Origin: Minisyncoccia bacterium
GTDB lineage: Bacteria > Patescibacteriota > Minisyncoccia > Phycocordibacterales > UBA9973
Reading direction: 5' to 3'
NCBI GenBank assembly: GCA_038249055.1
Contig: JBBRWS010000008.1
Span: 1-58,853, forward strand
DNA length: 58,853 nucleotides
This document shows positions 1,407-47,679 of this stretch, in pieces. The notes below the pieces were generated by a model that did no database searches, was not told where the DNA came from, and saw only the letters and a list, made by a program, of their open reading frames with translations. The first letter of the stretch is position 1. Every line of letters begins with the position of its first letter. The position numbers were made by a program, and so were the translations under genes.

Positions 1407-1691
1407 CAAAAGTGAAAAAAGAAGCAACGAGTAAGTTGCTTCTTTTTTTGATTCCCACTTTTGGCCCCGTGAGGGAATCGAAAAACGGAGGCTGTCGAGC
1501 TGAGTCGGGGTCGCGAGATTTTTCAGTAGAAAAATACTTGTGACCGATGAACCCAAACTGCTTTGCTTGCGTGAGGGAATCGAAAAGCTTTTCGTTCTCC
1601 GATACTCATTGGAGCGAAAAGTACCTGAACATGCGAATGAGTACATTCGCCTACTGGGTCGTGTTCGATAAGCGTACTTGCGGTCCCTCAC
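1407..1691 (+). mobile_element. tRNA-Lys-associated antisense/scaffold element (two scaffolds in tandem)
   Basis: Antisense to tRNA 3' end at 1464-1482 and 1573-1584; scaffold B 1483-1544; scaffold A 1585-1683; direct repeat TCCCTCAC 1684-1691. Confidence 0.75.
1634..1658 (-). repeat. 25-bp GTAG-type REP-like unit, copy 1
   Basis: Plus strand CGAATG-AGTA-CATTCG-CCTACTGGG. Confidence 0.85.
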
Positions 1692-22104: not shown

Positions 22105-22276
22105 TTGGGAACAGGGACCGCGAGTACGCCTTTCGGCTACCACGTAGCCAGGTACTTTTCGCTCTGGCTAATGCCAGAGAACGAAAAGTCTTTCGAATCC
22201 CTGACGCGACTGAAGCAGTTCAGTCGCTTTCCCAAGCAAATAAAAATAGCCCTTTAACAAGGGTTATTTTTATTTG
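22105..22276 (-). mobile_element. tRNA-Gln-associated antisense/scaffold element (cleanest copy)
   Basis: Hairpin, antisense acceptor, 25-nt hairpin (22204-22228), antisense T-arm (22192-22203), 74-nt scaffold A, 13-nt direct repeat of tRNA 3' end (22105-22117). Confidence 0.8.
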
Positions 22277-25774: not shown

Positions 25775-25791
25775 ATTTGTAGTATAACAAA

Positions 25792-26757: not shown

Positions 26758-26768
26758 TTGTTTTTTAG

Positions 26769-26854: not shown

Positions 26855-26874
26855 TTTATAACTAGAACTCATTA

Positions 26875-27741
26875 TTATTGAAACTTATATAAGACCTTGT
26901 TATTAAAGCGAAGATCTATATATAAGAGCGTATTATACTTTGAATTAATCTCTTCGGCAAATTCTCTCTTTCTCATAGAAAGAGCAAGATTGTCATATAT
27001 TGTTTCTAGTACATTATCATTCTTAAAAATTATTTTTGGGATAGAGTCATTTACTGCATGGCTCAAATATAATGAATTTATTCCATCTTGCCCTAATACT
27101 ATGTAAATAGGGTTTAAACCAAGAGAATTAATTTTATCCATAAACCGGGTTAATTCATGAAAACGATTAACATCAATCATTTGTTTGCCGAGAGGACTAA
27201 TAATATTTCCTTCTATTGTTCCATAATACTTAAAATATACATTTCCAGAAAAATATGGGGCCTCATCAAAAATAAATCCATCGTCATTTATAAAATAACA
27301 ATTTTCTCCTACTTGCTCTATATCTTGAGGAATATTTGGACCACAATAAAGAGAAGATCCTACTCTTTCAATTATTTCAATATGTAAAGTTTTTAAATTA
27401 TCACGATAGATAGAAAGTGATTCTATCCTTGGGAAATTTAAAATTAAATTATTATAAATTTGCTTATGTGGATAAATAAAACTATTTGCTCTAGAAAAAA
27501 GATGAAAATATTTACCTGAAATATCTTTGTAAATTTCTTCTTCAATATCTACTTTATCTATAATATGAGTACCAGTTATAACAACCTTATCAATAATTAT
27601 ATTTTTATTACCTGAAAAATAGGAAGTAGCCCCAATAATAGAAATGAGTAAAATAAAAAAAAGAATAGATAACCGAAACAAGCGAATACGGCGATTATGC
27701 CTTATTTCTATAATTCGTGGAGATGTTGGTATATCTCTCAT
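26875..27741 (-). CDS. FtsQ/DivIB-like cell division protein
   Basis: Basic N-terminus plus TM, POTRA-like region, C-terminal YIDLRFNNKVLYK. Confidence 0.75.
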   Translation of the reverse strand: MRDIPTSPRIIEIRHNRRIRLFRLSILFFILLISIIGATSYFSGNKNIIIDKVVITGTHIIDKVDIEEEIYKDISGKYFHLFSRANSFIYPHKQIYNNLILNFPRIESLSIYRDNLKTLHIEIIERVGSSLYCGPNIPQDIEQVGENCYFINDDGFIFDEAPYFSGNVYFKYYGTIEGNIISPLGKQMIDVNRFHELTRFMDKINSLGLNPIYIVLGQDGINSLYLSHAVNDSIPKIIFKNDNVLETIYDNLALSMRKREFAEEINSKYNTLLYIDLRFNNKVLYKFQ

Positions 27742-27748
27742 ATTAAAT

Positions 27749-29011
27749 CTATGAAATAATATCTTTACCTAAATATTTTTTCAAAACTTCTGGTATTTTA
27801 ATTGTACCATCTGCTTGTTGAAAATTTTCTACCAAAGACACTAATATGCGAGGGGTTGGAATAGCGGTACAATTAAGAGAATGAGCATATCTTGCTTTAC
27901 CTTCTTCATCACGATACCGAATATTTAAACGGCGAGTTTGAAAATCATGGAAATAAGACGCGGATGAAATCTCGCGATATTTGCTTTCCTTTGGAACCCA
28001 AAGTTCTACATCATATTTTTTAACTTGACCCATTCCTAAATCCCCTCCACAATTAACAACAGTATGATACGGAATACCGAGTGATTCTATAAATTCTTCT
28101 GTATTACGATTTACTTCTTCATGATATTTAACACTCTCAGTATGAGAAGCAGCACAAATAACTACTTGTTCTAATTTATAAAATTCGTGAACTCTTATTA
28201 AGCCTTTTACATCTTTACTGTGACTTCCCGCTTCGCGTCTATAACAAGGAGAAAAACCTAAATATTTTTTGGGTAATTCATCTGCTTTCAAAATTTCATC
28301 AGAATGAAATCCCATAAGGGGAACTTCCGCAGTACCAGCAAGAAAATCACCATCTTGAGTTTTATATAAATCATCTTCACCTTGTGGTAAATAACCTGTC
28401 CCCATAAAAGTTTCTCTTCGGATTATGACAGGCGGTAACACTGGAATAAATCCTTTATCGGAAAAGAAATTAAGAGCATAATTCCAGATGGCCATAGAAA
28501 GACGAGCTCCGTCACCTATAAGAAAATATCCTCTAAAGCCATGAACTTTTGTTCCTCTGTCAAAATCTACCATTTTTAGATTGGTCATTAGTTCAATATG
28601 ATCTTTTGCTTCAAACGAAAATGTTGGTTTTTCTCCCCAAGATTTAACTTCTTGATTGTCGGCATCACTCTCACCTTCAGGAACTGAAATATCTGGAACA
28701 TTTGGAACTTGGAGCATAAAAGACTGCCAAACTAGCATAGTTGCACGTAATTCTTCTTCTTTATCTTTTAATTCATCTTTAACGAGACGCATTTCCTCAA
28801 TCAATTGTCCTCGTGCTTCTTGGCTTAATGTTCCACCCATAGAAACACTCACTTTATTTTGCTCTCCACGCAAAAATTCAACACGAGAAAGAAGTTCTAA
28901 TCTTTTTTCATCAATAGAAAGAAGATTATCAATATCTACTTCAATATGTTTTTTCTTTGCACCCTCTTTAATTATATCTTTATTCTCGCGAATGAATTTA
29001 ATATCTAACAT
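27749..29011 (-). CDS. serS: seryl-tRNA synthetase
   Basis: MLDIKFIR, GTAEVP, YRREAG, RVHEF, EISSAS, ENFQQADG. Confidence 0.97.
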   Translation of the reverse strand: MLDIKFIRENKDIIKEGAKKKHIEVDIDNLLSIDEKRLELLSRVEFLRGEQNKVSVSMGGTLSQEARGQLIEEMRLVKDELKDKEEELRATMLVWQSFMLQVPNVPDISVPEGESDADNQEVKSWGEKPTFSFEAKDHIELMTNLKMVDFDRGTKVHGFRGYFLIGDGARLSMAIWNYALNFFSDKGFIPVLPPVIIRRETFMGTGYLPQGEDDLYKTQDGDFLAGTAEVPLMGFHSDEILKADELPKKYLGFSPCYRREAGSHSKDVKGLIRVHEFYKLEQVVICAASHTESVKYHEEVNRNTEEFIESLGIPYHTVVNCGGDLGMGQVKKYDVELWVPKESKYREISSASYFHDFQTRRLNIRYRDEEGKARYAHSLNCTAIPTPRILVSLVENFQQADGTIKIPEVLKKYLGKDIIS

Positions 29012-29113
29012 CCCAGTACTAAAATCTTATGACTAATTTTTCTCAATTACCCGACTGCCCTACTATCAATATATTTTATCTTAATTTAACTTAATCAAAA
29101 ATTTAGTACGGGA
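29011..29113. mobile_element. MITE-like element at serS start, TCCC...GGGA ends
   Basis: TCCCAGTACTAAA ... TTTAGTACGGGA; CA on both flanks (TG on the coding strand). Confidence 0.6.
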
Positions 29114-29163
29114 CAAGTAATATCTACAGTATATAAAAAAATATTATAATACACAAACAAATC

Positions 29164-29355
29164 TATATAAAATACAAAAATAGTCTTATCAGAGGGTCTT
29201 GGGAGGCTGTCGAGCCGAGCATGCTTAAAAGAAAACTGCTTTTCTTTTAAGGCGATGCCGTAGGCACATGTCGTTGTCGTAGACAGACATGAGTGGACAT
29301 TTTTATCCTTTAAATATCCGTGCCCTCTGAGAAGACTATTCTTATATTTTATATA
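29164..29355. mobile_element. MITE-like stem-loop element (ATAGTCTTMTCARAGGG ends), copy 2
   Basis: 33-bp terminal IR with 3 mismatches; internal GGAGGCTGTCGAGC identical to 1487-1500; AA-CTGC-TT hairpin at 29225-29250. Confidence 0.7.
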
Positions 29356-29385
29356 TTAAAACATAGTGTATAATAATTAAATATT

Positions 29386-30249
29386 ATGGAGGACATTTTT
29401 AAATTAAAACCAGAACAATTTCCTAATCCCCTACTTGAAATCCCCCAACCTCCAAAAACTCTTTACATAAGAGGAAAATTACCTGGCCCAGAATTAATAT
29501 ACTTAGCAGTTGTTGGTTCCCGTAAATACACTTCTTACGGCAGAGATATTTGTGAAAAGTTGATTCGTGGATTAAAAGATTATCCTATTGTTATTGTTTC
29601 AGGATTAGCCCTCGGAATAGATACTATTGCACATAAAACAGCGATGGAAGTAGGACTTACAACTATTTCTTTTCCTGGTTCAGGTTTAGACAACAGTGTT
29701 TTGTACCCAAGAACAAACATTCGACTTGCACAAGAAATAATAAACAATGGGGGTTGTTTAATTTCAGAATTCGAACCGAGCTTTATTGCCACACTTTATT
29801 CTTTTCCACAAAGAAATAGATTAATGGCTGGAATATCAAAAGCAGTACTAATAATAGAAGCTGAAGAAAAATCTGGTACGCTTATTACTGCCCGTATGGC
29901 TCTCGACTATAATCGTGATGTCCTGGCTGTTCCCGGCTCTGCATTTTCAGCAAATTCAAATGGAACCAACTGGCTAATAAAACAAGGAGCTACTCCTATA
30001 ACTTCGAGTGGAGATATTTTAGAAGCTCTAGGCTTTGAAATAGAAAAACTAGAGATAAGTGACGAAGAAAAATATGCTGACTGTTCTAAAGAAGAATTAA
30101 AAATAATTGCACTACTCCATGAGCCAATGGAGCGTGATGATTTAGTTCGCGAATCAGGCATGAAAATAGCGGAGGCGAATGCATTGCTTTCAATAATGGA
30201 ATTAAAAGATTTTATTAAAGAAGAATTAGGAGAGATTAGAAAAAAATAA
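29386..30249 (+). CDS. dprA: DNA-processing protein DprA
   Basis: AVVGSR, VSGLALGID, FPQRNRL, SGTLITA, LIKQGA. Confidence 0.96.
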   Translation: MEDIFKLKPEQFPNPLLEIPQPPKTLYIRGKLPGPELIYLAVVGSRKYTSYGRDICEKLIRGLKDYPIVIVSGLALGIDTIAHKTAMEVGLTTISFPGSGLDNSVLYPRTNIRLAQEIINNGGCLISEFEPSFIATLYSFPQRNRLMAGISKAVLIIEAEEKSGTLITARMALDYNRDVLAVPGSAFSANSNGTNWLIKQGATPITSSGDILEALGFEIEKLEISDEEKYADCSKEELKIIALLHEPMERDDLVRESGMKIAEANALLSIMELKDFIKEELGEIRKK

Positions 30250-30290
30250 AAAACATATTCGTACGCTATAGCGTACGAATATGTTTTTTA
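30247..30290. terminator. bidirectional terminator
   Basis: AAAAAACATATTCGTACGC-TATA-GCGTACGAATATGTTTTTT. Confidence 0.85.
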
Positions 30291-30310
30291 GATAATAAAA
30301 TAAATAAAAA

Positions 30311-31618
30311 TTACCTTTCAACCACGGGAAATACTTCCCCAGTATCTGGAATCATAAAATATTGATAACTTATTAATTGAGTCTTAATTAGATCGTCTGT
30401 GTTACCAACAGAGTGAGTATCATCCTCTGTAAGGAAAATTATTCTATCACCGTTATCTCTTCTTGTATCTTTCGTAAAATATACAAAACTACAATTAGCT
30501 TCGATGCATTCTCTAATAGTACTATTGGTCATATGTCCTCTATCTATATTATATTTTTCTGTATAATCAAAAATTTCTCCTGTATCTGCAATTCTAAATG
30601 TCCCCTTAACAAATTTATCAACAACCTCTCCTCTAGCATTTATCATATTTACACTATCTACAATAGGACTTGGAATAGGACCATTAGGGTCATATTTATC
30701 AGAAATAGATTTATTTTCATTATTAACTGAATTATTTTTAACAGTACTTACCCCACAACAATATGAACATGTTACAGGACCTTGATCTTCTTCTATGTAA
30801 AAATTTCCATTTTCATCAATCTTTATTCTATTTGTTAAATCTATACCACCAGGAATACAAGAAGCTTCTTTATCTGTTTTACCTTTTGATTCGCAAAATT
30901 GTTTAGAATCAAAACACTGAGAACGATCTTTGTATTCTTGTGTTACTATTTTTTGGTAAAAACAACTATATCCATCTCTTGAATTACCAACAAGCGCCCC
31001 TTCCTTTCCACATTGAACCTTTGATATAATTTTAACTCCAAAAATCATAACTAAAGGTACTACAACGGTTATAAAAATAATTATAGATAATATTATTACT
31101 AATTTTTTATTATTTTTAATCCATAATTTAAATGAGGCTATTTTTCCAACTTTTTCTCCATTCTCTATATTTTGTGTTGCATTATCTAAATTTTCGGAAA
31201 TATTTATATTATTAATAATGAGTTTTTTTAAATGTTTGACAAAAGTTACCCAAATTATAATAGTAATAATCGATAAAACTATCCAAGGAATAAATGCGAG
31301 AATAGCGAAAAGAAGATTTGGAGTTAGTATTACTTGTAAAAACAAATAGGCAATAATATAAGCAAAAGAAATGTGGGTCCATTTAATTACATCTTGTTTA
31401 AAATTGTAAAGTTTATAAACAAATATTAAAGAAAGACAAATATCAACTAAATATAACCCCAGTCTTATAATATTTGCGGTAGGATTTGATAAAAGACCTG
31501 GAGTTAATAAAACATTAATGTTAATTAATCCTGAGACGAGAGACCAAAGAGTCCCTGTTATTCCCAATATAAATAAAACGAGAATTATCCAAACATAAAC
31601 ACTTTTTTTATTATTCAT
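30311..31618 (-). CDS. hypothetical multi-TM protein with Cys-rich extracellular domain (paralog A)
   Basis: 4+1 TM; CxDSKQFCE, CxYCCG, YDPNGP...IPDTGEVFP shared with the next gene. Confidence 0.75.
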   Translation of the reverse strand: MNNKKSVYVWIILVLFILGITGTLWSLVSGLININVLLTPGLLSNPTANIIRLGLYLVDICLSLIFVYKLYNFKQDVIKWTHISFAYIIAYLFLQVILTPNLLFAILAFIPWIVLSIITIIIWVTFVKHLKKLIINNINISENLDNATQNIENGEKVGKIASFKLWIKNNKKLVIILSIIIFITVVVPLVMIFGVKIISKVQCGKEGALVGNSRDGYSCFYQKIVTQEYKDRSQCFDSKQFCESKGKTDKEASCIPGGIDLTNRIKIDENGNFYIEEDQGPVTCSYCCGVSTVKNNSVNNENKSISDKYDPNGPIPSPIVDSVNMINARGEVVDKFVKGTFRIADTGEIFDYTEKYNIDRGHMTNSTIRECIEANCSFVYFTKDTRRDNGDRIIFLTEDDTHSVGNTDDLIKTQLISYQYFMIPDTGEVFPVVER

Positions 31619-31626
31619 ATATTTAA

Positions 31627-33171
31627 TTATCTATTTATTAATGGAAAAACTTCTCCTGTATCAGGAATTAAAGAATATTGATAGCTAACTAATTCAGCCT
31701 CTTCAATTTTTCCTGTAAAAAAAATACTGGAACTATCTTCAGAAGCTGATAAACTATTTTTACTCTCTGGGTTAAGAAAGATTACAACAACACCTATATT
31801 ATAATGAGGCTCATAACAATATTGTCCTCCACCCTTAACCCCCATACAAAGATCTTCAGAATAAGTTATAGTCTTATCTGACCCACCATTTTGAGAATAT
31901 AAAATAGTATAAGTTGCACCGTCAGACATATCATGAGGATTAGGATAAGATACAACTTTTTTACCTTTTGAATAAAACTCAACTTTTATAATTTTTCCAA
32001 TAGCTGGATTATCTGTGTCATTAAATCTAGCACCAGAACCATATTTTATATAAGTATCATCTACAAAATAAACTTTTTTACAATTTAATTTAACACAACT
32101 ATCAATCGCACTTTCATAATCTAAGCTAACCTTTTCTCTGTATTCAAATGTTTTATCTTCGCCTATTTTTTTAAACGTCCCATTTATCCATTTATCAACA
32201 ACCTCTCCTCTAGCATTTATCATATTTACACTATCTACAATAGGGCTTGGATAAGGGCCATTTGGATCATACTTAGAAGTATTCACTTCTTTAACTAATG
32301 GAACTATTTTATCTATATCCCCACAACAATAATTACAAGCAACAGGTCCGTCTTGTAAATATATAACTCCATCTTTTTTAACACTTATAACATTTTTTCC
32401 ATAAGCACTACTAAAACCACAAAAATCACTCTTGTCAGTTTTACCTTTTAGTTCACAAAATTGTTTAGAATCAATGCACTGAGCATTTTCCGGCTGATTA
32501 ATAAAATAATAAGAACAATAGTATCCACCATTACCATTACTAATAAGTTTTGCATTTCTACCGCATTCTATTCTTGCTTTTGTACTCATAAACAAAGTAG
32601 GACCAAAGATTAAAACAAGTATCACAGATATAATTATCAGAATTGTTTTATTATTTTTAACCCAAAACATAAAACTTGATTTTTCTTTTATTATTTCTTT
32701 ATTATTTTCTTGACTATTATCTAAAACAACTGAAGAATTTTCTAATTGAACTTTCCTTATTCCTTTTAAATGATGAGTAAAAGTAACCCAAATTAATGCA
32801 ATGACTACCATTAAAATTATCCATGGAGTAACTACAACTGGCAAAAACATTAGATAATTAAAAATCAAACCCAAAGAACTACTAAAAATAAAAAAATAGA
32901 AAAAAATATTAGTCCATTTGATAACATCATTCTTTAAATTATAAAGTTTATAAAAATATACAACTAGAATAAAAAGATTTACGAAATTAAAAATTACACT
33001 TAGAATAGAAACAACGGAAATTGTTAAAATGTGATGTTCTAAAAAGATATTAATGCTCATTAAACCTAAAATAACGGCAAAAATATAACTTATTATTCCC
33101 AATAATATTAAAGTTAAAATAATCCAAACATAAGAACTTTTTTTGTTAATAACTATTAACTGATTTTCCAT
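31627..33171 (-). CDS. hypothetical multi-TM protein with Cys-rich extracellular domain (paralog B)
   Basis: Same architecture as paralog A plus ~80 extra aa. Confidence 0.75.
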   Translation of the reverse strand: MENQLIVINKKSSYVWIILTLILLGIISYIFAVILGLMSINIFLEHHILTISVVSILSVIFNFVNLFILVVYFYKLYNLKNDVIKWTNIFFYFFIFSSSLGLIFNYLMFLPVVVTPWIILMVVIALIWVTFTHHLKGIRKVQLENSSVVLDNSQENNKEIIKEKSSFMFWVKNNKTILIIISVILVLIFGPTLFMSTKARIECGRNAKLISNGNGGYYCSYYFINQPENAQCIDSKQFCELKGKTDKSDFCGFSSAYGKNVISVKKDGVIYLQDGPVACNYCCGDIDKIVPLVKEVNTSKYDPNGPYPSPIVDSVNMINARGEVVDKWINGTFKKIGEDKTFEYREKVSLDYESAIDSCVKLNCKKVYFVDDTYIKYGSGARFNDTDNPAIGKIIKVEFYSKGKKVVSYPNPHDMSDGATYTILYSQNGGSDKTITYSEDLCMGVKGGGQYCYEPHYNIGVVVIFLNPESKNSLSASEDSSSIFFTGKIEEAELVSYQYSLIPDTGEVFPLINR

Positions 33172-33175
33172 ATAG

Positions 33176-33412
33176 TTATTTTTTAATTTTTATTAAAGAA
33201 AAAATTGCTATTAATGACCATACTACTTGTAGCGTAAATGCTGGCCAAGCACTCTGTTGAAAAACATTAACTCCGACAAAAATAGCACCGAATAAATTCA
33301 ATAATTGATATCTTCTGTCTGTTGCACTAATTTTATTATTAGAAACTAAAAAATAAGCTAATACTATTAAAAAAGTTCCAATCCAACCGATAGTTTGTGA
33401 AAATATTTCCAT
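33176..33412 (-). CDS. small 3-TM protein (CBU_0592-like)
   Basis: IGWIG..LIVLAY...YQLLNLFGA...AWP. Confidence 0.7.
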   Translation of the reverse strand: MEIFSQTIGWIGTFLIVLAYFLVSNNKISATDRRYQLLNLFGAIFVGVNVFQQSAWPAFTLQVVWSLIAIFSLIKIKK

Positions 33413-33560
33413 CTATTAATTGTATATTAGAATCAAATATTTATCAAAGAATTTGCAAAAAAATATGTTTTCGTGTAATACTGTGAATTAGGTTCTGGTA
33501 TCTAGTTTCTATTTTTTAAAAACCTAATCACTTGTCACTAGTTCCTAATCACTAATTTAT

Positions 33561-35792
33561 ATGAAACTTTTAATTGTTGAGTCCCCTTCAAAAGCAAAGA
33601 CAATAGAAAAATATTTAGACGGCGCATACACTGTGCGTGCTTCTGTTGGGCACATAAGAGATTTACCAAAATCAAATAAAGAGGCAATAGACATACCTGG
33701 TGGTTTTATACCTCGTTATGAAATATCAAAAGGTAAAGAAAAAGTAGTTTCTGAATTAAAATCTCTTTCTGAAAAAGCAACAGAAATAATGCTCGCAACT
33801 GACCCGGACCGTGAAGGAGAAGCTATCTCATGGCATTTAAAAGAATTACTTGATGAAGATAAAAAAGTTAAAGCTCCTATTAAAAGAGTAACTTTTTATG
33901 AAATTACAAAAGAAGCTGTACAAAATGCACTTCAAAACCCTCGTGACATAGACCAAGATCTTGTAAAAGCTCAAGAAGCCCGTCGTGTACTTGACCGTCT
34001 TGTAGGATATGATTTATCTGGAATCATTTGGAAAAAAGTACGATACGGCCTTTCTGCAGGAAGAGTTCAATCCCCCGCTCTTCGTATAATAATGGAACGC
34101 GAAAGAGAAATTCGTGCTTTTATTCCTGAACAATATTGGACACTAGAAGGAACTTGGGAAACAAATAAAAATAATAAAATAACTCTATCTTGTGTAGAGG
34201 AACCTAGAGATGAAAAAGTTGTAACTCAAATTCTTAAACTAGGCAATAAAGAAAAATGGTTTGTAAAAGATTTAAAAACAAGTGAACAAAAGAGGCAACC
34301 TCGTGCTCCCTTTACAACTTCCACTCTTCAGCAGACTGCTAGTACTAGACTTGGATTTTCTCCTTCACGTACTATGCAAGTGGCCCAGAAACTTTATGAA
34401 CAAGGTTTTATTACATATATGCGTACAGATAGTACAAATTTAAGTTTAGTTGCTCAAAATCAAATACTTGCCCTCGTAGAAAAAAAATATGGTAAGGAGT
34501 ATGTAGAAGCTCATGTATATAAAGCCAAATCTAAAAATGCACAGGAGGCACACGAAGCTATTCGTCCTACTCATATAGAACAAATAAATGCAGGTGCAAA
34601 TGAAGAACAAAATAAACTTTATAAATTAATTTGGGAAAGAGTTGTTTCTTCTCAAATGTCTGACGCAAAATTATTAAAAACAAAAATTACTGCAAATATT
34701 AAAGAGGATGCAATTCCTGATTTTACTGCCAATGGTTCACGTGTATTATTTCCTGGATGGCTTCTATGTGAGACGGGAGCACGGGGTGAAGATGTTGAAC
34801 TTCCAGAAGTAATAGTAGGTGAAGAATTAAAACTTATAGAACTAAACAGCACAGAGAAAGCGACTGAACCTCCTAATCGTTATACTGAAGCGGGATTAGT
34901 TAAAGAACTTGAAGCACGTGACATCGGACGCCCTTCTACATATGCATCTATCATGAAAACTATTGAAGATAGAGGCTACGTGAGAAAAGAAGGACGTACT
35001 TTATTCCCTACTGATACTGGAGATGTGGTATCATCTTTTCTTGAAAATAATTTTGGAGAATATATAAGTGATACTTTCACCGCAGAAATGGAAGACAAAT
35101 TAGATGATATTTCAAATGGCAAAAGAGATTATGTAAAAACTTTAAGTGATTTTTATATTCCATTTCAAAAAGACGTTAAAGAAAAAGATAAACTTGCAAA
35201 AGCAACAAACATGGGTGAGGCTCCACTTGATATATTATGTCCAAAATGCGGAGGAAGTATGATTGTTAAACTTTCACGTGGAGGAAAATTTTATTCTTGT
35301 TCTAATTATCCAGATTGTGACGGTGCAAAAACTATTGAAGGAGTTGAACTTGAAGGTCCAAAAGAAACTGGTGAAATGTGTCCTACTTGTGGAGAAAAGA
35401 AAGGAAAATCAGGTGGTGGAAAACTTGTGATTCGTGTTAGACGTGACGGTACAGGTACTTTTATTTCTTGCTCTCGCTATCCTAAATGTAAATTTATAAA
35501 ACAAGACGAAGAAGAAATGAAAAGAAAGATGACAGATATTACCTGTCCTACGTGTCAAAAAGGCAAAATGATGGAACGCAAAGGAAGATTTGGAATATTT
35601 TATTCATGTAGTAACTACCCAGACTGTAAAAATGCTATCAAAGCAAAACCAACTGGAAATATTTGTCCTATGTGTGACTCACTTATGATGGAAGGCACAA
35701 AAACTATTCCTGAACGTTGTTCAAATAAAATGTGTAAGAATCATAATCCGCACAAACTTGGAGAAAACATAAAGAACAATAAAAACATTTAG
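33561..35792 (+). CDS. topA: DNA topoisomerase I with C-terminal zinc ribbons
   Basis: IVESPSKAK, ATDPDREGE, SAGRVQS, ITYMRTD, IGRPSTYA, repeated CPxC ribbons. Confidence 0.98.
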   Translation: MKLLIVESPSKAKTIEKYLDGAYTVRASVGHIRDLPKSNKEAIDIPGGFIPRYEISKGKEKVVSELKSLSEKATEIMLATDPDREGEAISWHLKELLDEDKKVKAPIKRVTFYEITKEAVQNALQNPRDIDQDLVKAQEARRVLDRLVGYDLSGIIWKKVRYGLSAGRVQSPALRIIMEREREIRAFIPEQYWTLEGTWETNKNNKITLSCVEEPRDEKVVTQILKLGNKEKWFVKDLKTSEQKRQPRAPFTTSTLQQTASTRLGFSPSRTMQVAQKLYEQGFITYMRTDSTNLSLVAQNQILALVEKKYGKEYVEAHVYKAKSKNAQEAHEAIRPTHIEQINAGANEEQNKLYKLIWERVVSSQMSDAKLLKTKITANIKEDAIPDFTANGSRVLFPGWLLCETGARGEDVELPEVIVGEELKLIELNSTEKATEPPNRYTEAGLVKELEARDIGRPSTYASIMKTIEDRGYVRKEGRTLFPTDTGDVVSSFLENNFGEYISDTFTAEMEDKLDDISNGKRDYVKTLSDFYIPFQKDVKEKDKLAKATNMGEAPLDILCPKCGGSMIVKLSRGGKFYSCSNYPDCDGAKTIEGVELEGPKETGEMCPTCGEKKGKSGGGKLVIRVRRDGTGTFISCSRYPKCKFIKQDEEEMKRKMTDITCPTCQKGKMMERKGRFGIFYSCSNYPDCKNAIKAKPTGNICPMCDSLMMEGTKTIPERCSNKMCKNHNPHKLGENIKNNKNI

Positions 35793-35903
35793 CCTTCGCT
35801 AAATGTTTTAGTTTTTGTGAGACGGAGCGATGTTTTGCGAGCACGCAAAACCGCGAGTCAAGGTTATTAGTTTTTCGAGTGGCGACGAGAAAAAACTTGT
35901 AAC
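35784..35903 (+). mobile_element. topA-associated antisense/scaffold element (scaffold B)
   Basis: 25-nt hairpin 35784-35808; antisense TAGTTTTTGTG 35809-35819; AGACGGAG...GAGTC..GGT...CTTGTAAC related to 1483-1544. Confidence 0.7.
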
Positions 35904-35992
35904 CAAAAACTATTCCCGAAAGATGCAGCAACAAGATGTGTAAAAACCATAATCCGCACAAGCTTGGGGAAAATATAAAAAGTAATAAATAA
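35904..35992 (+). pseudogene. synonymously recoded duplicate of the last ~28 codons of topA
   Basis: Encodes KTIPERCSNKMCKNHNPHKLGENIKSNK* versus topA ...ENIKNNKNI*. Confidence 0.9.
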
Positions 35993-36013
35993 ATTTTTTC
36001 AAAGGTACAACTT

Positions 36014-36038
36014 TGATTGAGTACAATCACCTACTGGG
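36014..36038 (-). repeat. 25-bp GTAG-type REP-like unit, copy 3
   Basis: Plus strand TGATTG-AGTA-CAATCA-CCTACTGGG. Confidence 0.85.
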
Positions 36039-36142
36039 CCGAAGCCGGCTAGCCAGTGAGGTCAATTTGCTAATTGAAGGTTGGACCTCTAAAACATTTA
36101 CCTGTCGTTTCCAAAAAAATACCAATACGTTATAATAAAGAA

Positions 36143-37609
36143 ATGATTCCAACAATCGAAGAAATAATATCTTTTACCCCAAATATAACAGAAAATGATA
36201 AAGCCCTTATAAAAAAGGCATATAATTTTGCGAAAAAAGCACACGAAGGACAACTTAGAAAAAATGGAGATCCTTACCTTATACACGTTGCAACAACTGC
36301 TCAAAATTTAGCAGACCTTGGGATGAGTCCTGTTGTCATATCTGCTGGTCTACTCCATGATGTTTTAGAAGATGCAGATGTAACTAGAGAAGAATTACAA
36401 AAAGAGTTTGGAGAAGAGATAGTGGAACTCGTAGAAGGAGTTACTAAACTTGGTAGAGTTAAATATAAAGGAATTGAACGTAATGTAGAAAACTTGAGAA
36501 AATTTTTCATTTCTGTTGCAAAAGATTTACGTGTTCTTGTCATTAAATTAGCCGACAGATTACACAACATAGAAACATTAGAAAATGTTAGACCCGACAA
36601 ACAAAGACGTATTGCACTTGAAACTCTAGAAATATACGCCCCCCTAGCGAATCGTCTTTCTATGGGAAGACTTAAGGGTAAACTTGAAGATGAAGCTTTT
36701 CCATTTGCTTACCCTAAAGAATATCAGGAAGTAAAAAAATTACTTTTACATAAAAAAGATGTTGGAGAAAAATATTTAATAGAAGTAAAAGAAAAAATTG
36801 AACAAAAAATTAAAGAATCTAAATTAAAAGATGTCACAATAGATTATCGCCAGAAGCATTTATATTCACTCTGGAAAAAACTCCAAAAAAATGATATGGA
36901 TATAGAAAAAATATACGATATCATAGCTCTTAGAGTTATGGTTAAAACTGTTGCTGATTGTTATCACGTCTTAGGTTTGGTTCATGGAGAATGGACACCA
37001 GTGCCAAATAGAATAAAAGATTATATTGCAACTCCAAAAGCAAATGGATATCAGAGTTTGCATACAACTATCTTTACAGGAACAGGAGGTATAGCAGAAA
37101 TACAAATTCGTACATATGAAATGCACGAAAAAGCTGAAAATGGTATAGCTGCTCACTTTATCTATAAAGAAAAAGATAAAAATGAAAGCACAATACCTAA
37201 GCAACTTGAGTGGGTTCAACAATTACATGAACTTAATCAAAATAAAGATAACCCTGAAAAATTCTTAAAATCGATAAAAATGGATTTCTTTAAAGATAGA
37301 GTTTTCGTTTTTACTCCTAGGGGGGATGTTATAGATTTACCCGAAGATTCTTCTGTTATTGATTTTGCATATGCTATACACACGGATGTTGGAGACCACG
37401 CACAAGGGTCAAAGGTTAATGGAAAAAATTCTTCTCTTGGTACTAAACTTAAAAATAATGATATAGTAGAAATTCAAACAAATAAGAATTCTAATCCATC
37501 ATCTAAATGGTTGGACTATGCAAAAACTAGTCTTGCTCGAAAACGTATAAATGTCTATTTGAAATCAAATAGCCTGCTTTCAAAATTTCTATCTTTTGGT
37601 AAACAATAA
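36143..37609 (+). CDS. rel: RelA/SpoT (p)ppGpp synthetase/hydrolase, HD+SYNTH+TGS, no ACT (start moved to MIPTIEE)
   Basis: LLHDVLED, KLADRLHN, APLANRL, KDYIATPK.NGYQSLHT, EIQIRT, DFAYAIHT. Confidence 0.93.
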   Translation: MIPTIEEIISFTPNITENDKALIKKAYNFAKKAHEGQLRKNGDPYLIHVATTAQNLADLGMSPVVISAGLLHDVLEDADVTREELQKEFGEEIVELVEGVTKLGRVKYKGIERNVENLRKFFISVAKDLRVLVIKLADRLHNIETLENVRPDKQRRIALETLEIYAPLANRLSMGRLKGKLEDEAFPFAYPKEYQEVKKLLLHKKDVGEKYLIEVKEKIEQKIKESKLKDVTIDYRQKHLYSLWKKLQKNDMDIEKIYDIIALRVMVKTVADCYHVLGLVHGEWTPVPNRIKDYIATPKANGYQSLHTTIFTGTGGIAEIQIRTYEMHEKAENGIAAHFIYKEKDKNESTIPKQLEWVQQLHELNQNKDNPEKFLKSIKMDFFKDRVFVFTPRGDVIDLPEDSSVIDFAYAIHTDVGDHAQGSKVNGKNSSLGTKLKNNDIVEIQTNKNSNPSSKWLDYAKTSLARKRINVYLKSNSLLSKFLSFGKQ

Positions 37610-37614
37610 AGTCT

Positions 37615-37660
37615 AATTAAAAAAATCACTTCGACTAAAGTCGAAGTGATTTTTTTAATT
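37615..37660. terminator. bidirectional terminator
   Basis: AAAAAAATCACTTCGAC-TAAA-GTCGAAGTGATTTTTTT. Confidence 0.85.
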
Positions 37661-38687
37661 AGATTGAGAAATTTTTGATGTTATATAAATCAATATCTTC
37701 CTCAGTTTTTGCTATTTCTTGTTTTGTTCTATCTTCAACAAGATGATCATCAATAAAAGTGTTTACATCTTCTGAAATATTTTGTTTAATCGTAACCGAA
37801 ACTTCAGGTTGTGATTCTTGACTAGCAGCAAATTTATCTAACATTGCATTTGGATTGCTACCTTCGACAGATTTAATTAAACCAAGAATAGTATGCAAGT
37901 CATCATTAGTAAAGAAATCAATCGTAATATAACCACCATTTTCTTTCTTTTCAATATGAACCCGAGTTCCAAGTGATTCTTGCAATTTTTCTTCCATTTC
38001 TGCAATCTCTGGATCAAGCATATACTCCTTTTTTCGAACACGATCAAAAGCTATTTTACGCGCGGCCTTTTCTGCGTCACGAACTGTCATCTTTTTAAAA
38101 ACTATTTCTTTAAATAGTACCATCTGTTCCTGAGGTCTGTCCGTAAGCATCAAAATAGGACGGGTGTGTCCTTCGCTTATTTTTCTTGCAGAGAGTGCAT
38201 CTAATATCTCTTGAGGTAAAGCAAGAAGTCTCATTGTGTTTGATACATATTCACGACTCTTTCCAACTTTCTTTCCTATCTGAGTGTGAGTAAATTTAAA
38301 TTCTTCTACAAGTCTCATAAAAGCTCGAGCACGTTCAACTGCATTTAAATCTTCACGTTGTAAGTTCTCAATTATAGCAAGCTCAAGCTTAGCCATACTA
38401 TCATCACCTACTCGAATAATAACTGGAATTTGTTCAAGCCCGGCTAACTTGGAAGCTCTTAATCTACGCTCCCCCGCAATAAGTTCATATTCTACTGCAA
38501 TACCACCATCTTCCTTCTGAATTTCTTCTCGTGATACTACAAGCGGCTGAAGAACACCATACTGACGAATAGAATCTGCTAAATCCCTCAAACGATCTTC
38601 ATCAAACTCACGGCGAGGTTGAAAAGGATTTGGTTTAACTTTTTCTATATCTACCCAAAAAATTGAATTACTATAAAGTTGAGACAT
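37659..38687 (-). CDS. parB: ParB/Spo0J partition protein
   Basis: PNPFQPR, GVLQP, IAGERRLRA, IENLQREDL, HTH. Confidence 0.95.
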   Translation of the reverse strand: MSQLYSNSIFWVDIEKVKPNPFQPRREFDEDRLRDLADSIRQYGVLQPLVVSREEIQKEDGGIAVEYELIAGERRLRASKLAGLEQIPVIIRVGDDSMAKLELAIIENLQREDLNAVERARAFMRLVEEFKFTHTQIGKKVGKSREYVSNTMRLLALPQEILDALSARKISEGHTRPILMLTDRPQEQMVLFKEIVFKKMTVRDAEKAARKIAFDRVRKKEYMLDPEIAEMEEKLQESLGTRVHIEKKENGGYITIDFFTNDDLHTILGLIKSVEGSNPNAMLDKFAASQESQPEVSVTIKQNISEDVNTFIDDHLVEDRTKQEIAKTEEDIDLYNIKNFSI

Positions 38688-38761
38688 ACAGAGTATTTTA
38701 TCACACTTTCATCATGTTGAAAAATTTAAATATTTGTGTATAATTAACCCTGTTAGTATAT

Positions 38762-38844
38762 GCGTCGGTGGTAGAGCGGTCAATTACAACAGACTGTAAA
38801 TCTGTCGCCTTCGGGCTACGTAGGTTCAAATCCTACCCGACGCA
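38762..38844 (+). tRNA. tRNA-Tyr(GTA), no encoded CCA
   Basis: Acceptor GCGTCGG/CCGACGC, loop CTGTAAA, long variable arm, T-loop TTCAAAT. Confidence 0.95.
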
Positions 38845-39180
38845 CAAATAAGAAAAACGGCTTCAAGGCCGTTTTTCTTATTTGTGCGTCGGAGCAAGCC
38901 AACTGCTTGGCTTGCGTGTAGGATTTGAAAAGCTTTTCGTTACAAATTTTGATTTATCAAAATTTGTCGAAAAGGTGTACAGAATCTGTAAGATTCAAAA
39001 AGGCTACTGCCGGTCCTACCCAACACATGTTGTCGCTGAGTCGCCCAGTAGGTCATTTTACTAAATGAGGGTCGCGAGATTTTTCAGCAGAAAAATACTT
39101 GTGACCAAAAAATGTACTCATGGTCCTACCCCCCCAAAAAAAGTTTTAGTCGAGTTCCAAAAGCATATTCACGGTCCTAC
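38845..39180 (+). mobile_element. tRNA-Tyr-associated antisense/scaffold element with three right-end remnants
   Basis: Antisense 38885-38892 and 38918-38929 split by a 25-nt hairpin; TCCTAC(CC) repeats at 39014, 39124, 39175; scaffold-B hairpin 39069-39106. Confidence 0.8.
39044..39068 (+). repeat. 25-bp GTAG-type REP-like unit, copy 4 (opposite orientation)
   Basis: CCCAGTAGG-TCATTT-TACT-AAATGA. Confidence 0.85.
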
Positions 39181-39214
39181 TAAAAAGACCTTAATTTTAA
39201 TTAAGGTCTTTTTA
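39181..39214. terminator. terminator after clpB
   Basis: TAAAAAGACCTTAATT/AATTAAGGTCTTTTTA. Confidence 0.75.
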
Positions 39215-39218
39215 ATTA

Positions 39219-41906
39219 CTATTTTGAATTAACTTTACTATCTAATTTTATATTATGATTAATTTTCTTTTTCTTCATCTCAATAATAATCTCATTATCT
39301 TTCATAGTGGCGTAAACAGTATCCCCTTTCTTTACTCCCTTAGAAATCATAAACATAGCCACAGGGTTAAGAATCTTTTCTTGAATCAATCTACCTAAAG
39401 GTCGAGCACCATAGTGAGGATCATATCCTTCTTTTGCTAAATAAGACAAAGCTTCATCTTTTATATCAAGCTCAATTCCCTTACTTGCCAAACGTTCTCT
39501 AATTATTTTAATTTTAATATCAACAATATGACGAATAACTTCAGGAGAAAGAATATCAAAAACAATAATATCATCCAATCGATTCAAAAATTCTGGTCTA
39601 AAATGTTCTTTTAAAGCATCTAGTACCTTATCCTTAGTTTGAGAATATTCATCCATTTTTGTTTTATTACTAAATCCTAGTGATTCCATTTTTTGAATAA
39701 AATTAGAACCTAAATTTGAAGTGAGTACTATAATTGTATTTCTAAAATTAACTACACGACCTTTTGAGTCAGTAAGACGCCCTTCATCAAGAACTTGTAG
39801 TAGAACATTGAAAACCTCAGGGTGAGCTTTTTCTATTTCATCAAATAATATTACCGAGTATGGTCGATGACGAACTGCTTCTGTAAGATTACCTGATTCA
39901 TCATAGCCAACATAACCAGGAGGTGAACCGATAAGTTTTGAAATGCTGTGACGTTCTGTATATTCACTCATGTCTACTCGTATGAGTGCCTTATCATCAT
40001 TAAACATAAATTGAGCCAATGCTTTTGTAAGTTCTGTTTTTCCCACACCAGTTGGACCGAGAAAAATAAAAGAACCCATTGGTTTATTTGGATCTGAAAT
40101 TCCCGCTCTACTGCGACGAACAACATCTGAAATCTTTTTAATAGCAATATCTTGACCTACAACGCGTAAACGTAACTCATCTTCTATCTTTGATAATTTA
40201 TTTAATTCTTCCTCTAACATTTTTTCAAGAGGTACTCCTGTCCAACGAGAAACAACCGCGGCTATGTCTTCTGTGGTTATTTCTTCTTTTAGAATACGTC
40301 GTGATTTTTGAAGTTTTTTCAATCTAGACACTTTTGTTTCTAGATTACTTTGTAAATCAGGAATTCTTCCATAACGTATTTCTGCTGCACGCCCTAAGTC
40401 TGCACGCATCTCAGCATTTTCTGCTTCAAGGCGTAAAGACTCTAACTCTTTTTTTATTTCACGAATTTCTAGAACTGTTTCTTTTTCGTTTTTCCATTTA
40501 AGTTCCAATTCATGAGTTTTCTCTTTAAGATTCGCAATTTCTTTTTCTATATCTTTCATCCTAGCTTTTGCATCTTTATTTTGTGATGTTTTATTTCTTT
40601 CTATCTCTTTAGTTAATGCCTCTTTCTCAACTTCAAAACGCATAATTTTTCGATCAGATTCTTCTAAAACTTGTGGTTTATTTTCAAGTGCAAGACGTAA
40701 AGCAGAAGAAGCTTCATCTATAAGATCAACAGCTTTATCTGGTAAATATCTATTCGTGATATATCTTGCACTTAAATTGACAGCGGAAATAATAGCATCA
40801 TCGGTAATTCTAACACCATGAAAAAGTTCATACTTTTCTTTTAGACCACGTAAAATTGCAATTGCATCGTCAATACTTGGCTCATCTATATATATAGGTT
40901 GAAATCGTCTTGCAAGAGCTGGGTCTTTTTCAATATGTTTTTGATACTCTTTTAGTGTAGTTGCTCCTATTGCACGTAGTTCCCCACGAGCAAGTGCTGG
41001 TTTTAACATATTTGAAGCATCAAGAGAACCCTCTGATGAACCCGCTCCAACTATTGTATGAATTTCGTCTATAAATAAAATTATTTTTCCATTAGACTTC
41101 TCTATTTCTTTCATAATACCGCGCAATCTTTCTTCAAATTCTCCACGATATTTTGTACCAGATAATAACAATCCTAAATCAAGTGCTACTACTTCCTTAT
41201 CTTTTAAACTCTCAGGTACATCATTTTTTGCTATTCGAATAGCAAGAGCTTCGGCAACTGCCGTCTTTCCAGTTCCAGCCTCTCCTATTAAAATAGGATT
41301 ATTTTTGGTACGTCGAGATAATATTTGCATCATTCTCATTATTTCTGTATCACGTCCAATAACTGGATCAAGTTTATCTTCCCTAGCTAGCGTTGTAAGA
41401 TTACGAGTAAACTTAACAAGAAGTTTTGGTTTTTTAGAAGAATTTGATTCTGTAATATTTTCATTTCTAAGCAAATTAAGAACATTTAAAACTTTTTCTT
41501 TATTGATTTTAAAACGCCCCAATAATTCACGAGCTTCACCTGCAACTTCAAGTAAAGAAACAAATAGATGCTCCGTAGAAACAAATTCGTCCTTTAAAGT
41601 TTGAGCTACTTTGCTAGAATTTTCAATAATTTGAGCGAGATCTGGAGTAAGATAAATCTGATATGAAGGTGAAAGTGTATTACGATTTTCAGGAGATTCT
41701 GTCATTTCTATCAAGTTATCTGTCAGCAACATCGTATCAACTTCCATCTTATCTAAAATAGAAATAACCAAAGAATCTTCCTGTATTAACAGAGCGGTTA
41801 ATAAATGTAAAGAATTTACATGATTTTGACCACGCTCAATAGCTAGCTCATGAGCCTTACGAATTACCTCTTTTGCTTTTGTTGTAAAATTATTAAATGG
41901 GGGCAT
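39219..41906 (-). CDS. clpB: ATP-dependent chaperone ClpB
   Basis: Two AAA modules ([16 protein letters not shown]) and long coiled-coil M-domain with AAEIRYG. Confidence 0.93.
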
Positions 41907-47358: not shown

Positions 47359-47440
47359 GCCCAGGTGGCGGAATTGGTATACGCGCTAGTCTTAGGAACT
47401 AGTGGAGCAATCCTTGGAGGTTCAAGTCCTCTCCTGGGCA
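47359..47440 (+). tRNA. tRNA-Leu(TAG), no encoded CCA
   Basis: Acceptor GCCCAGG/CCTGGGC, loop CTTAGGA, long variable arm, T-loop TTCAAGT. Confidence 0.95.
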
Positions 47441-47596
47441 CAAATACAAAAAATCCCTTTGCTTTTGCAAAAGGATTTTTTGTATTTGTGCCCAGAGCAA
47501 GCCATTGGTACGGCTTGCGTGAGAGGACTTGAAAAGGTTGAATATATGGTTTAGAAATTAATATTTCTAAACCATATGAAACCTGTACCGACTCTG

Positions 47597-47621
47597 CGAA
47601 TGAGTGCATTCGCCTACTGGG
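47597..47621 (-). repeat. 25-bp GTAG-type REP-like unit, copy 5
   Basis: Plus strand CGAATG-AGTG-CATTCG-CCTACTGGG. Confidence 0.85.
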
Positions 47622-47679
47622 TAAGAGTCAAGACATGTACTCATGGTCCTCTCCTGGGCTTAATTGATGCTCAAAAGCG

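Follow-up and report, generated by a model that had tools for sequence, protein, structure and literature searches.

A 25-nt hairpin within tRNA-tail antisense in a Minisyncoccia genome: a candidate junction helix of a widespread, apparently uncatalogued element family

INTRODUCTION

Why should a 25-nt hairpin stand in the middle of an otherwise continuous antisense copy of a tRNA end? The question is raised by a 58,853-nt stretch of DNA from a Minisyncoccia bacterium (GenBank assembly GCA_038249055.1, contig JBBRWS010000008.1), referred to here as the window, in which the tRNA-Tyr(GTA) gene is followed by such a copy and the hairpin, which we call M1, interrupts it. A preliminary description of the locus took the hairpin to be either a protein-binding handle that sets the length of a guide or another very small mobile unit. 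As contig C8, the window belongs to an 18-contig genome (G000; 975,128 bases, approximately 31% G+C, completeness rating of 97.6%) whose gene set includes 42 tRNA genes and one tmRNA gene.

From our analysis we conclude that M1 is not a terminator and not a mobile hairpin in its own right. The reading that we favor, and to which we give about an even chance of being correct, is that M1 is an integral, structure-constrained junction helix of a widespread and apparently uncatalogued family of tRNA-tail elements that are non-autonomous and move horizontally. A role for M1 as a "handle or ruler" is compatible with this reading.

RESULTS

Anatomy of the unit behind tRNA-Tyr

The elements are about 140 to 220 nt long. 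After the tRNA come, in this order, a terminator hairpin (T), a first antisense arm (A1), M1, a second antisense arm (A2), a scaffold of approximately 90 to 120 nt, and a sense copy of the tRNA tail (S); the coordinates are collected in Table 1. In tRNA-Tyr, the last 21 nt (nt 54 to 74, designated X) are copied downstream as both antisense and sense. At this gene, which has a promoter-like site at 38717-38744, A1 is antisense to the acceptor 3' strand, the discriminator, and 1 further nt, and it lengthens the palindrome of T, while A2 is antisense to the T-stem 3' strand and the entire T-loop and matches the unusual TTCAAAT T-loop of this tRNA. The scaffold, of the kind that we call type A, consists of a long hairpin closed by CUUUUCG/CGAAAAG, a 6- to 7-bp hairpin with a UGUA loop, and a 3-bp hairpin with a UACU loop, followed by GGU.

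The hairpin at tRNA-Tyr has the sequence and the antisense flanks that had been attributed to it, and the copies reported at tRNA-Gln and tRNA-Leu, as well as the partial copy at tRNA-Lys, were also recovered. The constant geometry of 1 + 9 + 4 + 9 + 2 nt that had been proposed holds for the units behind tRNAs. The copy claimed at topA (35784-35808) is not an M1 module but the inner part of the 12-bp stem of a plain terminator, without antisense flanks. Behind tRNA-Lys(CTT), a first unit with a different scaffold (type B) carries a 19-nt antisense without interruption (1464-1482); a second unit, of type A, retains only the 3' half of M1 (about 1552-1572), followed by A2 (1573-1584) and S (1684-1691). 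M1 was rejected as an intrinsic terminator because no T run follows its stem; it is followed instead by GT and A2, and the terminator scan does not report it.

Table 1. Coordinates of tRNA-linked units and related features in the window
Feature	Position	Strand	Evidence or remarks
tRNA-Tyr(GTA)	38762..38845	+	ARAGORN, Rfam
Tyr unit, T	38846..38883	+	Sequence; 38-nt A/T-armed perfect palindrome, terminator-like, directly 3' of tRNA-Tyr
Tyr unit, A1	38884..38892	+	Exact match; GTGCGTCGG, reverse complement of tRNA-Tyr nt 66-74
Tyr unit, M1	38893..38917	+	Sequence; A-GCAAGCCAA-CTGC-TTGGCTTGC-GT, 25-nt hairpin, 1 + 9 + 4 + 9 + 2
Tyr unit, A2	38918..38929	+	Exact match; GTAGGATTTGAA, reverse complement of tRNA-Tyr nt 54-65
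Tyr unit, type-A scaffold	38930..39013	+	Covariance model R1 match 38883-39031, 135.5 bits; covariation
Tyr unit, S	39014..39021	+	Partial sense copy of tRNA-Tyr tail, TCCTACCC; pairs with A2, closing scaffold
Degenerate unit pieces behind Tyr unit	39027..39180	+	Type-B 3' part with inverted M3 (nested module, see text); two further ends in ...GGTCCTAC
Terminator after degenerate pieces	39181-39214
Type-A unit behind tRNA-Gln(TTG), complete	22105..22275	-	R1 146.8 bits; gene 22276-22347, minus
Gln unit, T	22238-22275	-
Gln unit, A1	22229-22237	-
Gln unit, M1	22204-22228	-
Gln unit, A2	22192-22203	-
Gln unit, scaffold	22118-22191	-
Gln unit, S	22105-22117	-
Type-A unit behind tRNA-Leu(TAG)	47442..47659	+	R1 match; gene 47359-47441
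Leu(TAG) unit, A1	47488-47495	+	8 nt
Leu(TAG) unit, M1	47496-47520	+	Loop TGGT; junction 66|67
Leu(TAG) unit, A2	47521-47533	+
Leu(TAG) unit, scaffold		+	With M3 insertion
Leu(TAG) unit, S	47646-47659	+
Two units behind tRNA-Lys(CTT)	1408..1691	+	R1 match 1541-1699; gene 1334-1407
topA terminator	35782..35809	+	12-bp stem, then T run; overlaps topA stop codon
Type-B unit behind topA terminator, with second copy of last 27 topA codons	35810..35992	+	Codon copy at 35906-35992
Separate structured element between serS(-) and dprA(+)	29178..29345	+	168 nt

The position of the hairpin is tied to the tRNA tail

The preliminary description had proposed a genome-wide tally of the hairpin, and a tally of this kind ties its position to the tRNA tail. 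A hairpin was counted if it lay within 450 nt downstream of a tRNA or tmRNA gene, had a 9-bp stem (at most one non-pair), a 3- to 5-nt loop, and linkers of 1 nt before and 2 nt after, and had 8-nt flanks that pair in register with the tRNA tail (at most one non-pair each, G-U allowed). At least one such split-antisense module stands behind 21 of the 43 tRNA/tmRNA genes of G000, giving 25 units, and the tmRNA gene likewise has a unit behind it; when exact matching of the 8-nt flanks was imposed, 16 qualifying genes were left. In the mismatched control, in which each tRNA was compared with the downstream region of every other gene, there were 20 matches in 1,806 comparisons, mostly between isoacceptors with near-identical tails.

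M1 stands between tRNA nt 65 and 66, the junction of acceptor stem and T-stem that had been claimed for it, in 21 of the 25 units. In the remaining four, all of which follow tRNA-Leu genes (CAA, TAG, and GAG twice), it lies one nt later, which agrees with the 1-nt offset already noticed at tRNA-Leu. The 65|66 junction was also used in 35 of 39 units from other genomes, at loci partly chosen by a pattern that contains M1. In a tRNA, the acceptor helix stacks on the T helix at the point that corresponds to the A1/A2 boundary. A1 is 8 to 9 nt long throughout and adjoins the terminator palindrome in all units read, and A2 is 12 nt long in the layout 9 + 25 + 12. One and the same M1 25-mer was found at three different tRNAs; the broad hairpin scan was permissive (983 hairpins), and only its record of identical 25-mers was put to use. 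An uninterrupted antisense of 19 to 21 nt, together with the type-B scaffold, is carried by four tRNAs (Asp, Thr-TGT, Lys-CTT, and Val-TAC).

Covariation and strand

Eight clean units could be aligned well, and RNAalifold gave 46 pairs for them, 30 with compensatory changes. In 47 units from G000 and its relatives that were aligned to the covariance model R1, 92.5% of cells were paired, compared with 63.5% after shuffling and 38 to 47% for slid partners; the alignment is fitted to the model structure, which inflates the paired percentage, and the margin over the controls is large. Changes on both sides were seen for 43 of the 46 pairs. In the M1 helix, all nine pairs covary and 97.9% of cells are paired. 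M1 has a sequence consensus besides this covariation, since the 25-mer recurs across phyla: the consensus AGCAAGCAAACUGCUUUGCUUGCGU is found in three phylum-level groups, and the 25-mer AGCAAGCAAACTGCTTTGCTTGCGT is common to Paceibacteria, Saccharibacteria, and Elusimicrobium.

The folded strand is the tRNA-sense strand, because G-U cells exceed A-C cells (114 versus 32, or 61 versus 31 when two conserved U-G columns are subtracted). Of the 40 R1 matches in G000, 35 have a tRNA or tmRNA gene on the same strand no more than 700 nt upstream, and none has one on the opposite strand. Promoter and terminator scans found no promoter-like site between tRNA and unit; unit RNA, if made, must come from terminator read-through. 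A search for RNA sequencing runs that contain this DNA found none.

When the whole window was searched against Rfam 15 at gathering thresholds, only tRNAs and a 16S fragment were reported, and E-value mode searches of 38700-39250, 29100-29420, and five loci from other phyla gave nothing at gathering except tRNA genes. The best of the other matches, to TD-2 at one of the Elusimicrobia loci (L142; 39.6 bits against a threshold of 48.7), covers the terminator and some of M1 on the opposite strand and was judged spurious. By-eye resemblances to the hammerhead, the hairpin ribozyme, the K-turn, and group II intron D5 were dropped, as their core motifs do not fit and Rfam reports none of them. No description of the family was found in the open-access full-text papers and preprints searched, subscription literature being outside the search; it is apparently undescribed and without a counterpart in Rfam 15.

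Pairing partners and predicted folds

A1 continues the terminator palindrome, so that a single long hairpin is made up of the tRNA acceptor 3' strand, T, and A1. The first five or six nt of A2 pair with S and close the scaffold. Of the cells in this closing helix, 94.1% are paired, against only 81.5% in the A1:S helix. The T-loop antisense within A2 has no partner in the S of type-A units, yet it tracks each tRNA's own T-loop (TTCAAAT, TTCAATT, TTCAAGT, and TCCGATT, among others). In other genomes, where loci had been chosen in part by a pattern and by a minimum of 17 pairs out of 21, 464 of 468 cells were Watson-Crick for A2 against the tail and 295 of 351 for A1. It is the tail that is copied in antisense and not the tRNA 5' strands; A2 departs from the T-stem 5' strand at wobble pairs, as in tRNA-Gln; the antisense is therefore either a copy of the tail itself or matched to it.

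In many cases the terminal S copies are shortened, to tail positions 12-19 up to 12-24. Those inside tandem arrays are complete and are followed by another terminator, so that unequal exchange involving the tRNA tail and S can generate arrays.

Minimum-free-energy folds of read-through RNA were predicted for 16 scored cases, three further genes for which no S was found being left out. A1 paired with the tRNA tail in all 16 and A2 in 15, and S paired with the tRNA's own T-stem 5' strand in eight, and in tRNA-Gln with the acceptor 5' strand too. The read-through RNA is thus predicted to undergo a "tail swap," in which S replaces the clamped tail. According to these models, M1 would stand where the partner helices meet in either fold, with 1 and 2 unpaired linker nt.

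Distribution across genomes

R1 matched 36 of 41 genomes, G000 included: all 24 others of the genus and 11 of 16 from other families of the order. The number of matches per genome, which is not a copy number, ranged from 0 to 40. A pattern scan of 596 Gb of public genomes with M1 and the start of A2 (16 specified bases, for which some hundreds of chance matches were estimated) returned at least 121 stretches; 80 loci were fetched, and only the 49 that had an R1 match were used. These include loci from Paceibacteria/Parcubacteria, Saccharibacteria, Minisyncoccia, and Elusimicrobia metagenome-assembled genomes (MAGs). The R1-negative loci are presumably chance matches, as expected with 16 specified bases. 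In Elusimicrobia MAGs (L081, L122, and L142) and two other MAGs (L076 and L110), M1 is joined to the type-B scaffold; this occurrence with a second scaffold type in other phyla indicates that M1 behaves as a domain of the element. On viral contigs there were 18 matches to the M1 plus A2 pattern and three to a type-B 16-mer; R1 matched none of them, and the three type-B matches, on reading, look like chance in coding DNA; no association with viruses emerged from these matches.

Occupancy and the topA copy

Twenty-eight tRNA-Tyr loci in relatives were classed by eye over 260 nt each: 15 are without a unit, five have a type-A unit with M1 (L033, L047, L050, L056, and L062), and eight have other antisense-bearing units. 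Like terminator arms stand beside tRNA-Tyr in the occupied/empty pairs L033/L057 and L050/L042; at L057, from relative G003, tRNA-Tyr has the matching arms and no unit. These shared arms suggest that the unit was added 3' of a pre-existing terminator; it is also possible that the terminator itself was brought by the element.

The second copy of the topA end lies approximately 200 nt downstream of the first and encodes an identical peptide save for one residue and the end, with about 17 nt differences that are mostly synonymous. Compared over 83 to 93 nt, the downstream copy shares 86.7% identity with the topA end of G007, a relative whose topA otherwise shows the greatest divergence in the comparison (70.4% identity across the 900 nt upstream), and the in-frame end is closer to that of the nearest relative, G022 (84.4% versus 81.8%). 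The BLAST identities of the two ends to relatives are ambiguous when taken alone and suggestive only against the upstream 900 nt of topA. Judged from these sequences, the foreign-like copy suggests that the element may have arrived with a tail copy from another lineage. Relatives G004, G037, and G002 have two topA-end matches 200 to 280 nt apart.

Contigs of two DNA runs over 21800-39500 contained only repeat-induced joints and breaks and no clean empty-site or circle junction. Taken together, the patchy occupancy of orthologous sites and the foreign-looking topA duplicate point to a horizontally moving, non-autonomous element.

Three orphan units of G000, at C1:95420-95560(-), C1:78843-79029(-), and C10:17800-18450(-), have antisense that fits tRNA-Glu(CTC) or tRNA-His. 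They sit 18 to 40 kb from those genes, which are themselves unit-free, and each is preceded by degenerate tail-like sequence and a hairpin.

Candidate partner proteins

No match to IS110 (PF01548), reverse transcriptase (PF00078, RVT_1), TnpB (PF07282), L7Ae (PF01248), or Nop (PF01798) was found in G000, and no conserved neighboring open reading frame (ORF) was seen beside the units. A single tyrosine recombinase match (PF00589) is located elsewhere in G000. G000 has a bacterial RNase P RNA. It also encodes a RAYT-like Y1 transposase of 220 aa (PF01797; C12:13527-14186(-), corresponding to L063:1273-1935), the gene for which is flanked by GGTAGAGGTTGGACCTCTACC palindromes and not by M1. RAYT was rejected as the mobilizer, as its presence does not track the RNA family across genomes: five genomes have the RNA without a RAYT match, and three have the reverse. 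The GGTAGAGGTTGGACCTCTACC palindromes also occur near several tRNA-linked units and behind the topA-end copy (about 36000-36100).

DISCUSSION

In our favored reading, the element would open with a 21-nt antisense of the tRNA tail that M1 interrupts at 65|66, making two pairing arms. By reaching over the terminator to pair with the acceptor 3' strand, A1 would lengthen the terminator hairpin. A2 would have two possible partners: the tail, at its T-stem 3' strand and T-loop, or S at the 3' end of the element, a pairing that closes the scaffold. Because M1 divides the antisense into two arms, it would be a side arm, connected through its 1-nt and 2-nt linkers, at a three- or four-way junction. 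M1 has a fixed length, a conserved loop, and a consensus shared across phyla, which suggest an architectural or recognition arm that keeps the two pairings in register, perhaps as a protein handle or a docking helix. As a whole, the element would act as a single strand of tRNA-sense polarity. That strand is most likely RNA, produced when transcription from the tRNA promoter reads through; the alternative form is single-stranded DNA. It would move horizontally and duplicate, with complementarity to the tail tying it to the tRNA site, in what may be a pairing-guided form of mobility. In favor of the earlier suggestion of a handle that sets guide length stand the constant geometry, the position, the covariation, and the cross-phylum consensus; however, no binding protein was found among the families searched, and to call the arms a guide is itself an interpretation.

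Several observations weigh against this reading. The terminator separates the tRNA promoter from the unit, so that unit transcription would depend on predicted read-through, and the evidence for RNA consists of the G-U bias and the conserved U-G pairs, which single-stranded DNA could tolerate too. The percentage of paired cells is raised by the fitting of the alignment, the topA argument draws on short comparisons, and neither a partner protein nor a mobilizing enzyme was found among the families searched in G000. Many units (type B) are without M1, and at a Parachlamydiales locus (L067) M1 and A2 are present but no A1 matches; M1 can therefore be dispensed with. The reading gives no account of how at least 21 different tRNAs each gained a perfectly matched antisense, and concerted quasi-palindrome evolution (templated correction) could keep the antisense matched without any function.

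If the favored reading is correct, about half of the tRNA genes in an approximately 1-Mb genome carry an element whose ends are written in the sequence of the neighboring tRNA, and the same holds in many other Patescibacteria and some Elusimicrobia. A large RNA family would then be missing from Rfam, part of the intergenic "dark matter" in streamlined episymbiont genomes would be explained, and target pairing across a folded terminator would be a possible new principle of site recognition. The constant cross-phylum M1 offers a concrete bait for a partner protein, and the tail-swap fold and the foreign topA-end duplicate offer testable read-outs.

A bolder extension, which we put forward tentatively and expect to be wrong more often than right, is that the units belong to a new class of homing elements, either protein-less or dependent on a host enzyme, that find the tRNA 3' flank by tail pairing in a single-stranded, terminator-folded state. 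The T-loop antisense would serve as a toehold and M1 as a junction arm; the spare sense copy would replace the clamped tail, like a swap-in 3' exon, and guide and passenger copies would be rewritten for each new tRNA. If so, nucleic-acid-guided site choice with self-customizing ends would exist across several bacterial phyla.

Two kinds of known mobile element invite comparison with the units. Integrative elements that target tRNA genes, together with their non-autonomous derivatives resembling cis-mobilizable elements (CIMEs) and MITEs (miniature transposable elements with inverted repeats), have direct repeats of the tRNA 3' end that start at the T-loop and flank the insert, tandem arrays, patchy occupancy, and tmRNA targets. 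Our units likewise are flanked by tail repeats, arrayed, and patchy, with tmRNA included; unlike those elements, they have no integrase, measure approximately 200 nt, contain an antisense tail copy with a hairpin inside, and lie behind a terminator. Class C (IIC) group II introns are far larger, with six domains and a catalytic D5; they usually encode a reverse transcriptase and use few exon-binding nt. They are described as mobile structured RNAs located directly downstream of intrinsic terminators in the direction of transcription (PMC1702495). The units resemble them in adjoining a terminator hairpin in transcription orientation, as the strand counts of the R1 matches show, but differ in their length, in having no Rfam group II match, in the absence of any reverse transcriptase match in G000, and in their 21-nt antisense to the upstream tail.

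The units might instead be a host device acting in cis, in which the antisense clamps the tRNA tail in read-through RNA and S substitutes for it, so that precursors are marked, processed, or rescued; M1 would then break a duplex of about 40 bp, or it would shape a junction resembling that of a tRNA on which RNase P, RNase Z, or RNase III could act. The predicted domain swap, the constant orientation relative to the tRNA, the bacterial RNase P RNA, and the way in which the guides follow lineage-specific tRNA changes all accord with such a device. We nevertheless regard it as unlikely. More than half of the tRNA-Tyr loci examined in relatives are unit-free, 22 of the 43 genes of G000 are without the M1 form, match numbers fall to zero in some genomes, and there are tandem arrays, degenerate copies, a unit behind topA, and orphans far from any matching tRNA; this patchiness, with the arrays and the degenerate and orphan copies, fits a dispensable selfish element better than a host function.

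We are similarly unconvinced, and a shade more doubtful, about the proposal that the unit is the guide RNA of an RNA-guided enzyme (a recombinase, a nuclease, or a modification enzyme), with A1 and A2 as a split guide against the tRNA or its gene and M1 as protein handle, for which the closest parallels would be the upper stem in an H/ACA pocket and the distal hairpin in a loop of the bridge RNA. The guide-hairpin-guide layout with its constant lengths, the consensus of M1 kept across phyla, and the perfect complementarity to each cognate tRNA agree with it, and within type-A units nothing pairs with the T-loop antisense, which therefore appears to be directed at the tRNA or at the gene for it. 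Against this, none of the five enzyme and partner families searched was found in so complete a genome, no conserved neighboring ORF was seen, and S would mask the guide within the unit itself.

The geometry of known split guides bears on the same proposal. In the pseudouridylation pocket of H/ACA guide RNAs, two guide stretches around a hairpin pair with one continuous target strand in a three-way junction; two target nt stay unpaired, a lower stem closes the pocket, an ACA box lies 14 to 16 nt from the target, and Cbf5 and L7Ae are bound. The likeness to A1 and A2 around M1 is one of geometry only, since here the target is fully paired, where the pocket would leave two nt free, and the three unpaired nt are on the guide side; in addition, neither a lower stem nor an ACA box is found at the expected place, L7Ae has no match in G000, and the organism is a bacterium. 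Short split guides of approximately 9 nt around a structured hairpin also recall the IS110 bridge RNA and the tigRNA. The bridge RNA is encoded beside the gene for a DEDD/IS110 recombinase. TIGR systems comprise arrays of alternating edge and loop repeats with spacers of approximately 9 nt and a Nop-domain Tas gene, and occur in Parcubacteria (PMC12045711). In contrast to bridge RNAs, A1 and A2 are both antisense to one strand, contiguous on the target, whereas bridge-RNA and TIGR guides address both DNA strands; the units also far exceed the 36-nt TIGR repeats, and PF01548 and PF01798 were not found in G000.

It is quite improbable, in our judgment, that the palindrome formed by X, T, and the antisense, with M1 extrahelical, is a recombination site of folded single-stranded DNA that would offer a host tyrosine recombinase a duplex version of the tRNA-gene tail, the units being cassette-like insertions at such tails. 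Integron attC sites and the CTX-phage attP(+) site are imperfect palindromes conserved in structure and not in sequence, with extrahelical features, which are used as a folded single strand and give rise to arrays at one site. The palindrome of our units is also imperfect, has an extrahelical feature, and builds arrays in which each unit ends in a tail copy and a palindrome, in one case with an ORF between units; the direct repeats span the T-loop to the 3' end, as at the T-loop sites of tyrosine integrases, tmRNA is also a target, one tyrosine recombinase is present, and the topA-end copy looks foreign. However, the arms copy the neighboring tRNA tail, the apex is the terminator of the gene, and the cargo is a structured non-coding scaffold, unlike attC or attP(+), and no IntI-type (integron-type) integrase was found in G000. 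Neither the conserved U-G pairs nor the many small covarying hairpins of the scaffold would be needed, the terminator beside the tRNA looks ancestral and not element-borne, and the contigs of the two DNA runs, dominated by repeat-induced joints, contain no circular or excised form. The array with the ORF, at C2:90620-91430, is cassette-like: two units that match tRNA-Gln(CTG) flank an ORF of approximately 270 aa, which has a promoter-like site of its own and encodes a hydrophobic anchor at the N terminus.

Least probable of all, and in our view very doubtful, is the other earlier suggestion, that M1 is a miniature mobile hairpin of its own, like a repetitive extragenic palindromic (REP) sequence, inserted into a continuous antisense, perhaps by the Y1 (RAYT-like) transposase: uninterrupted units do exist, modules of 25 to 26 nt are nested in these elements (one in both orientations), one M1 25-mer recurs at three tRNAs, and a RAYT-like gene with flanking GTAG-type palindromes is present, but M1 keeps to 65|66 although the sequence there varies by tRNA, which an independent insertion would not do, its stems covary instead of being copies, identical 25-mers reflect a cross-phylum consensus, the continuous-antisense units carry a different scaffold, and RAYT occurs independently of the RNA. 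Unlike REP/REPIN elements, which are short extragenic palindromes with a conserved GTAG-type flank, present in many copies and in both orientations alongside a RAYT gene, M1 has one orientation, almost always directly 5' of the T-arm antisense and never inverted, one structural position, and a sequence that differs from the palindromes of the genome's own RAYT.

Nested modules and other structured elements

Two further modules were noticed within the units. M3, of 25 to 26 nt, is a short hairpin with an AGTA loop plus CCTACTGGG; it has 38 copies in the genome, those in the window being at 1650, 8404, 36030, 47613, 47696, and 39052(-), and is nested in loops of M1, the scaffold, and type-B units in both orientations. 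Its 9-mer is antisense to tRNA-His nt 61-69, and about one copy would be expected by composition (an estimate). M3 looks like a mini-insertion at the DNA level. M2, a 25-nt module with the sequence CGATTAGTAAATCGAACCGTGAGGA, lies inside A2 of three units (Gly-CCC unit 2, Gln-CTG, and Ala-TGC) at C1:24650-24680, C2:90385-90415, and C6:37345-37375 (L001, L006, and L015), and its tail resembles antisense of tRNA-Lys(CTT) nt 62-69. Both modules look like nested insertions.

The separate element between serS and dprA has a 19-bp closing stem and a z-score of -5.1, and the Rfam search of 29100-29420 gave no match to it. The hairpin with an AA-CTGC-TT loop that had been noticed in this region is present (29227-29248), and the element has, as the tRNA-linked units do, this AA-CUGC-UU hairpin together with a GGAGGC...GCCGAG hairpin.

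Elsewhere in G000, two tandem partial copies of the tRNA-Phe(GAA) 3' end, with a 47-nt spacing, are followed by a terminator and a 9-nt antisense (C1:25704-25900); this is another kind of tail-copying element. The leaders of two tRNA-Ser genes (C2:55090-55228 and C10:47265-47423) contain a copy of the tRNA 5' end (GGAGGYGTGG) and then an AA-CTKC-TT hairpin, and may be the 5'-side counterpart of the 3' units. At C2:81700-82200, between tRNA-Met and tRNA-Asp, a small ORF labeled by eye as GIY-YIG type is preceded by a hairpin.

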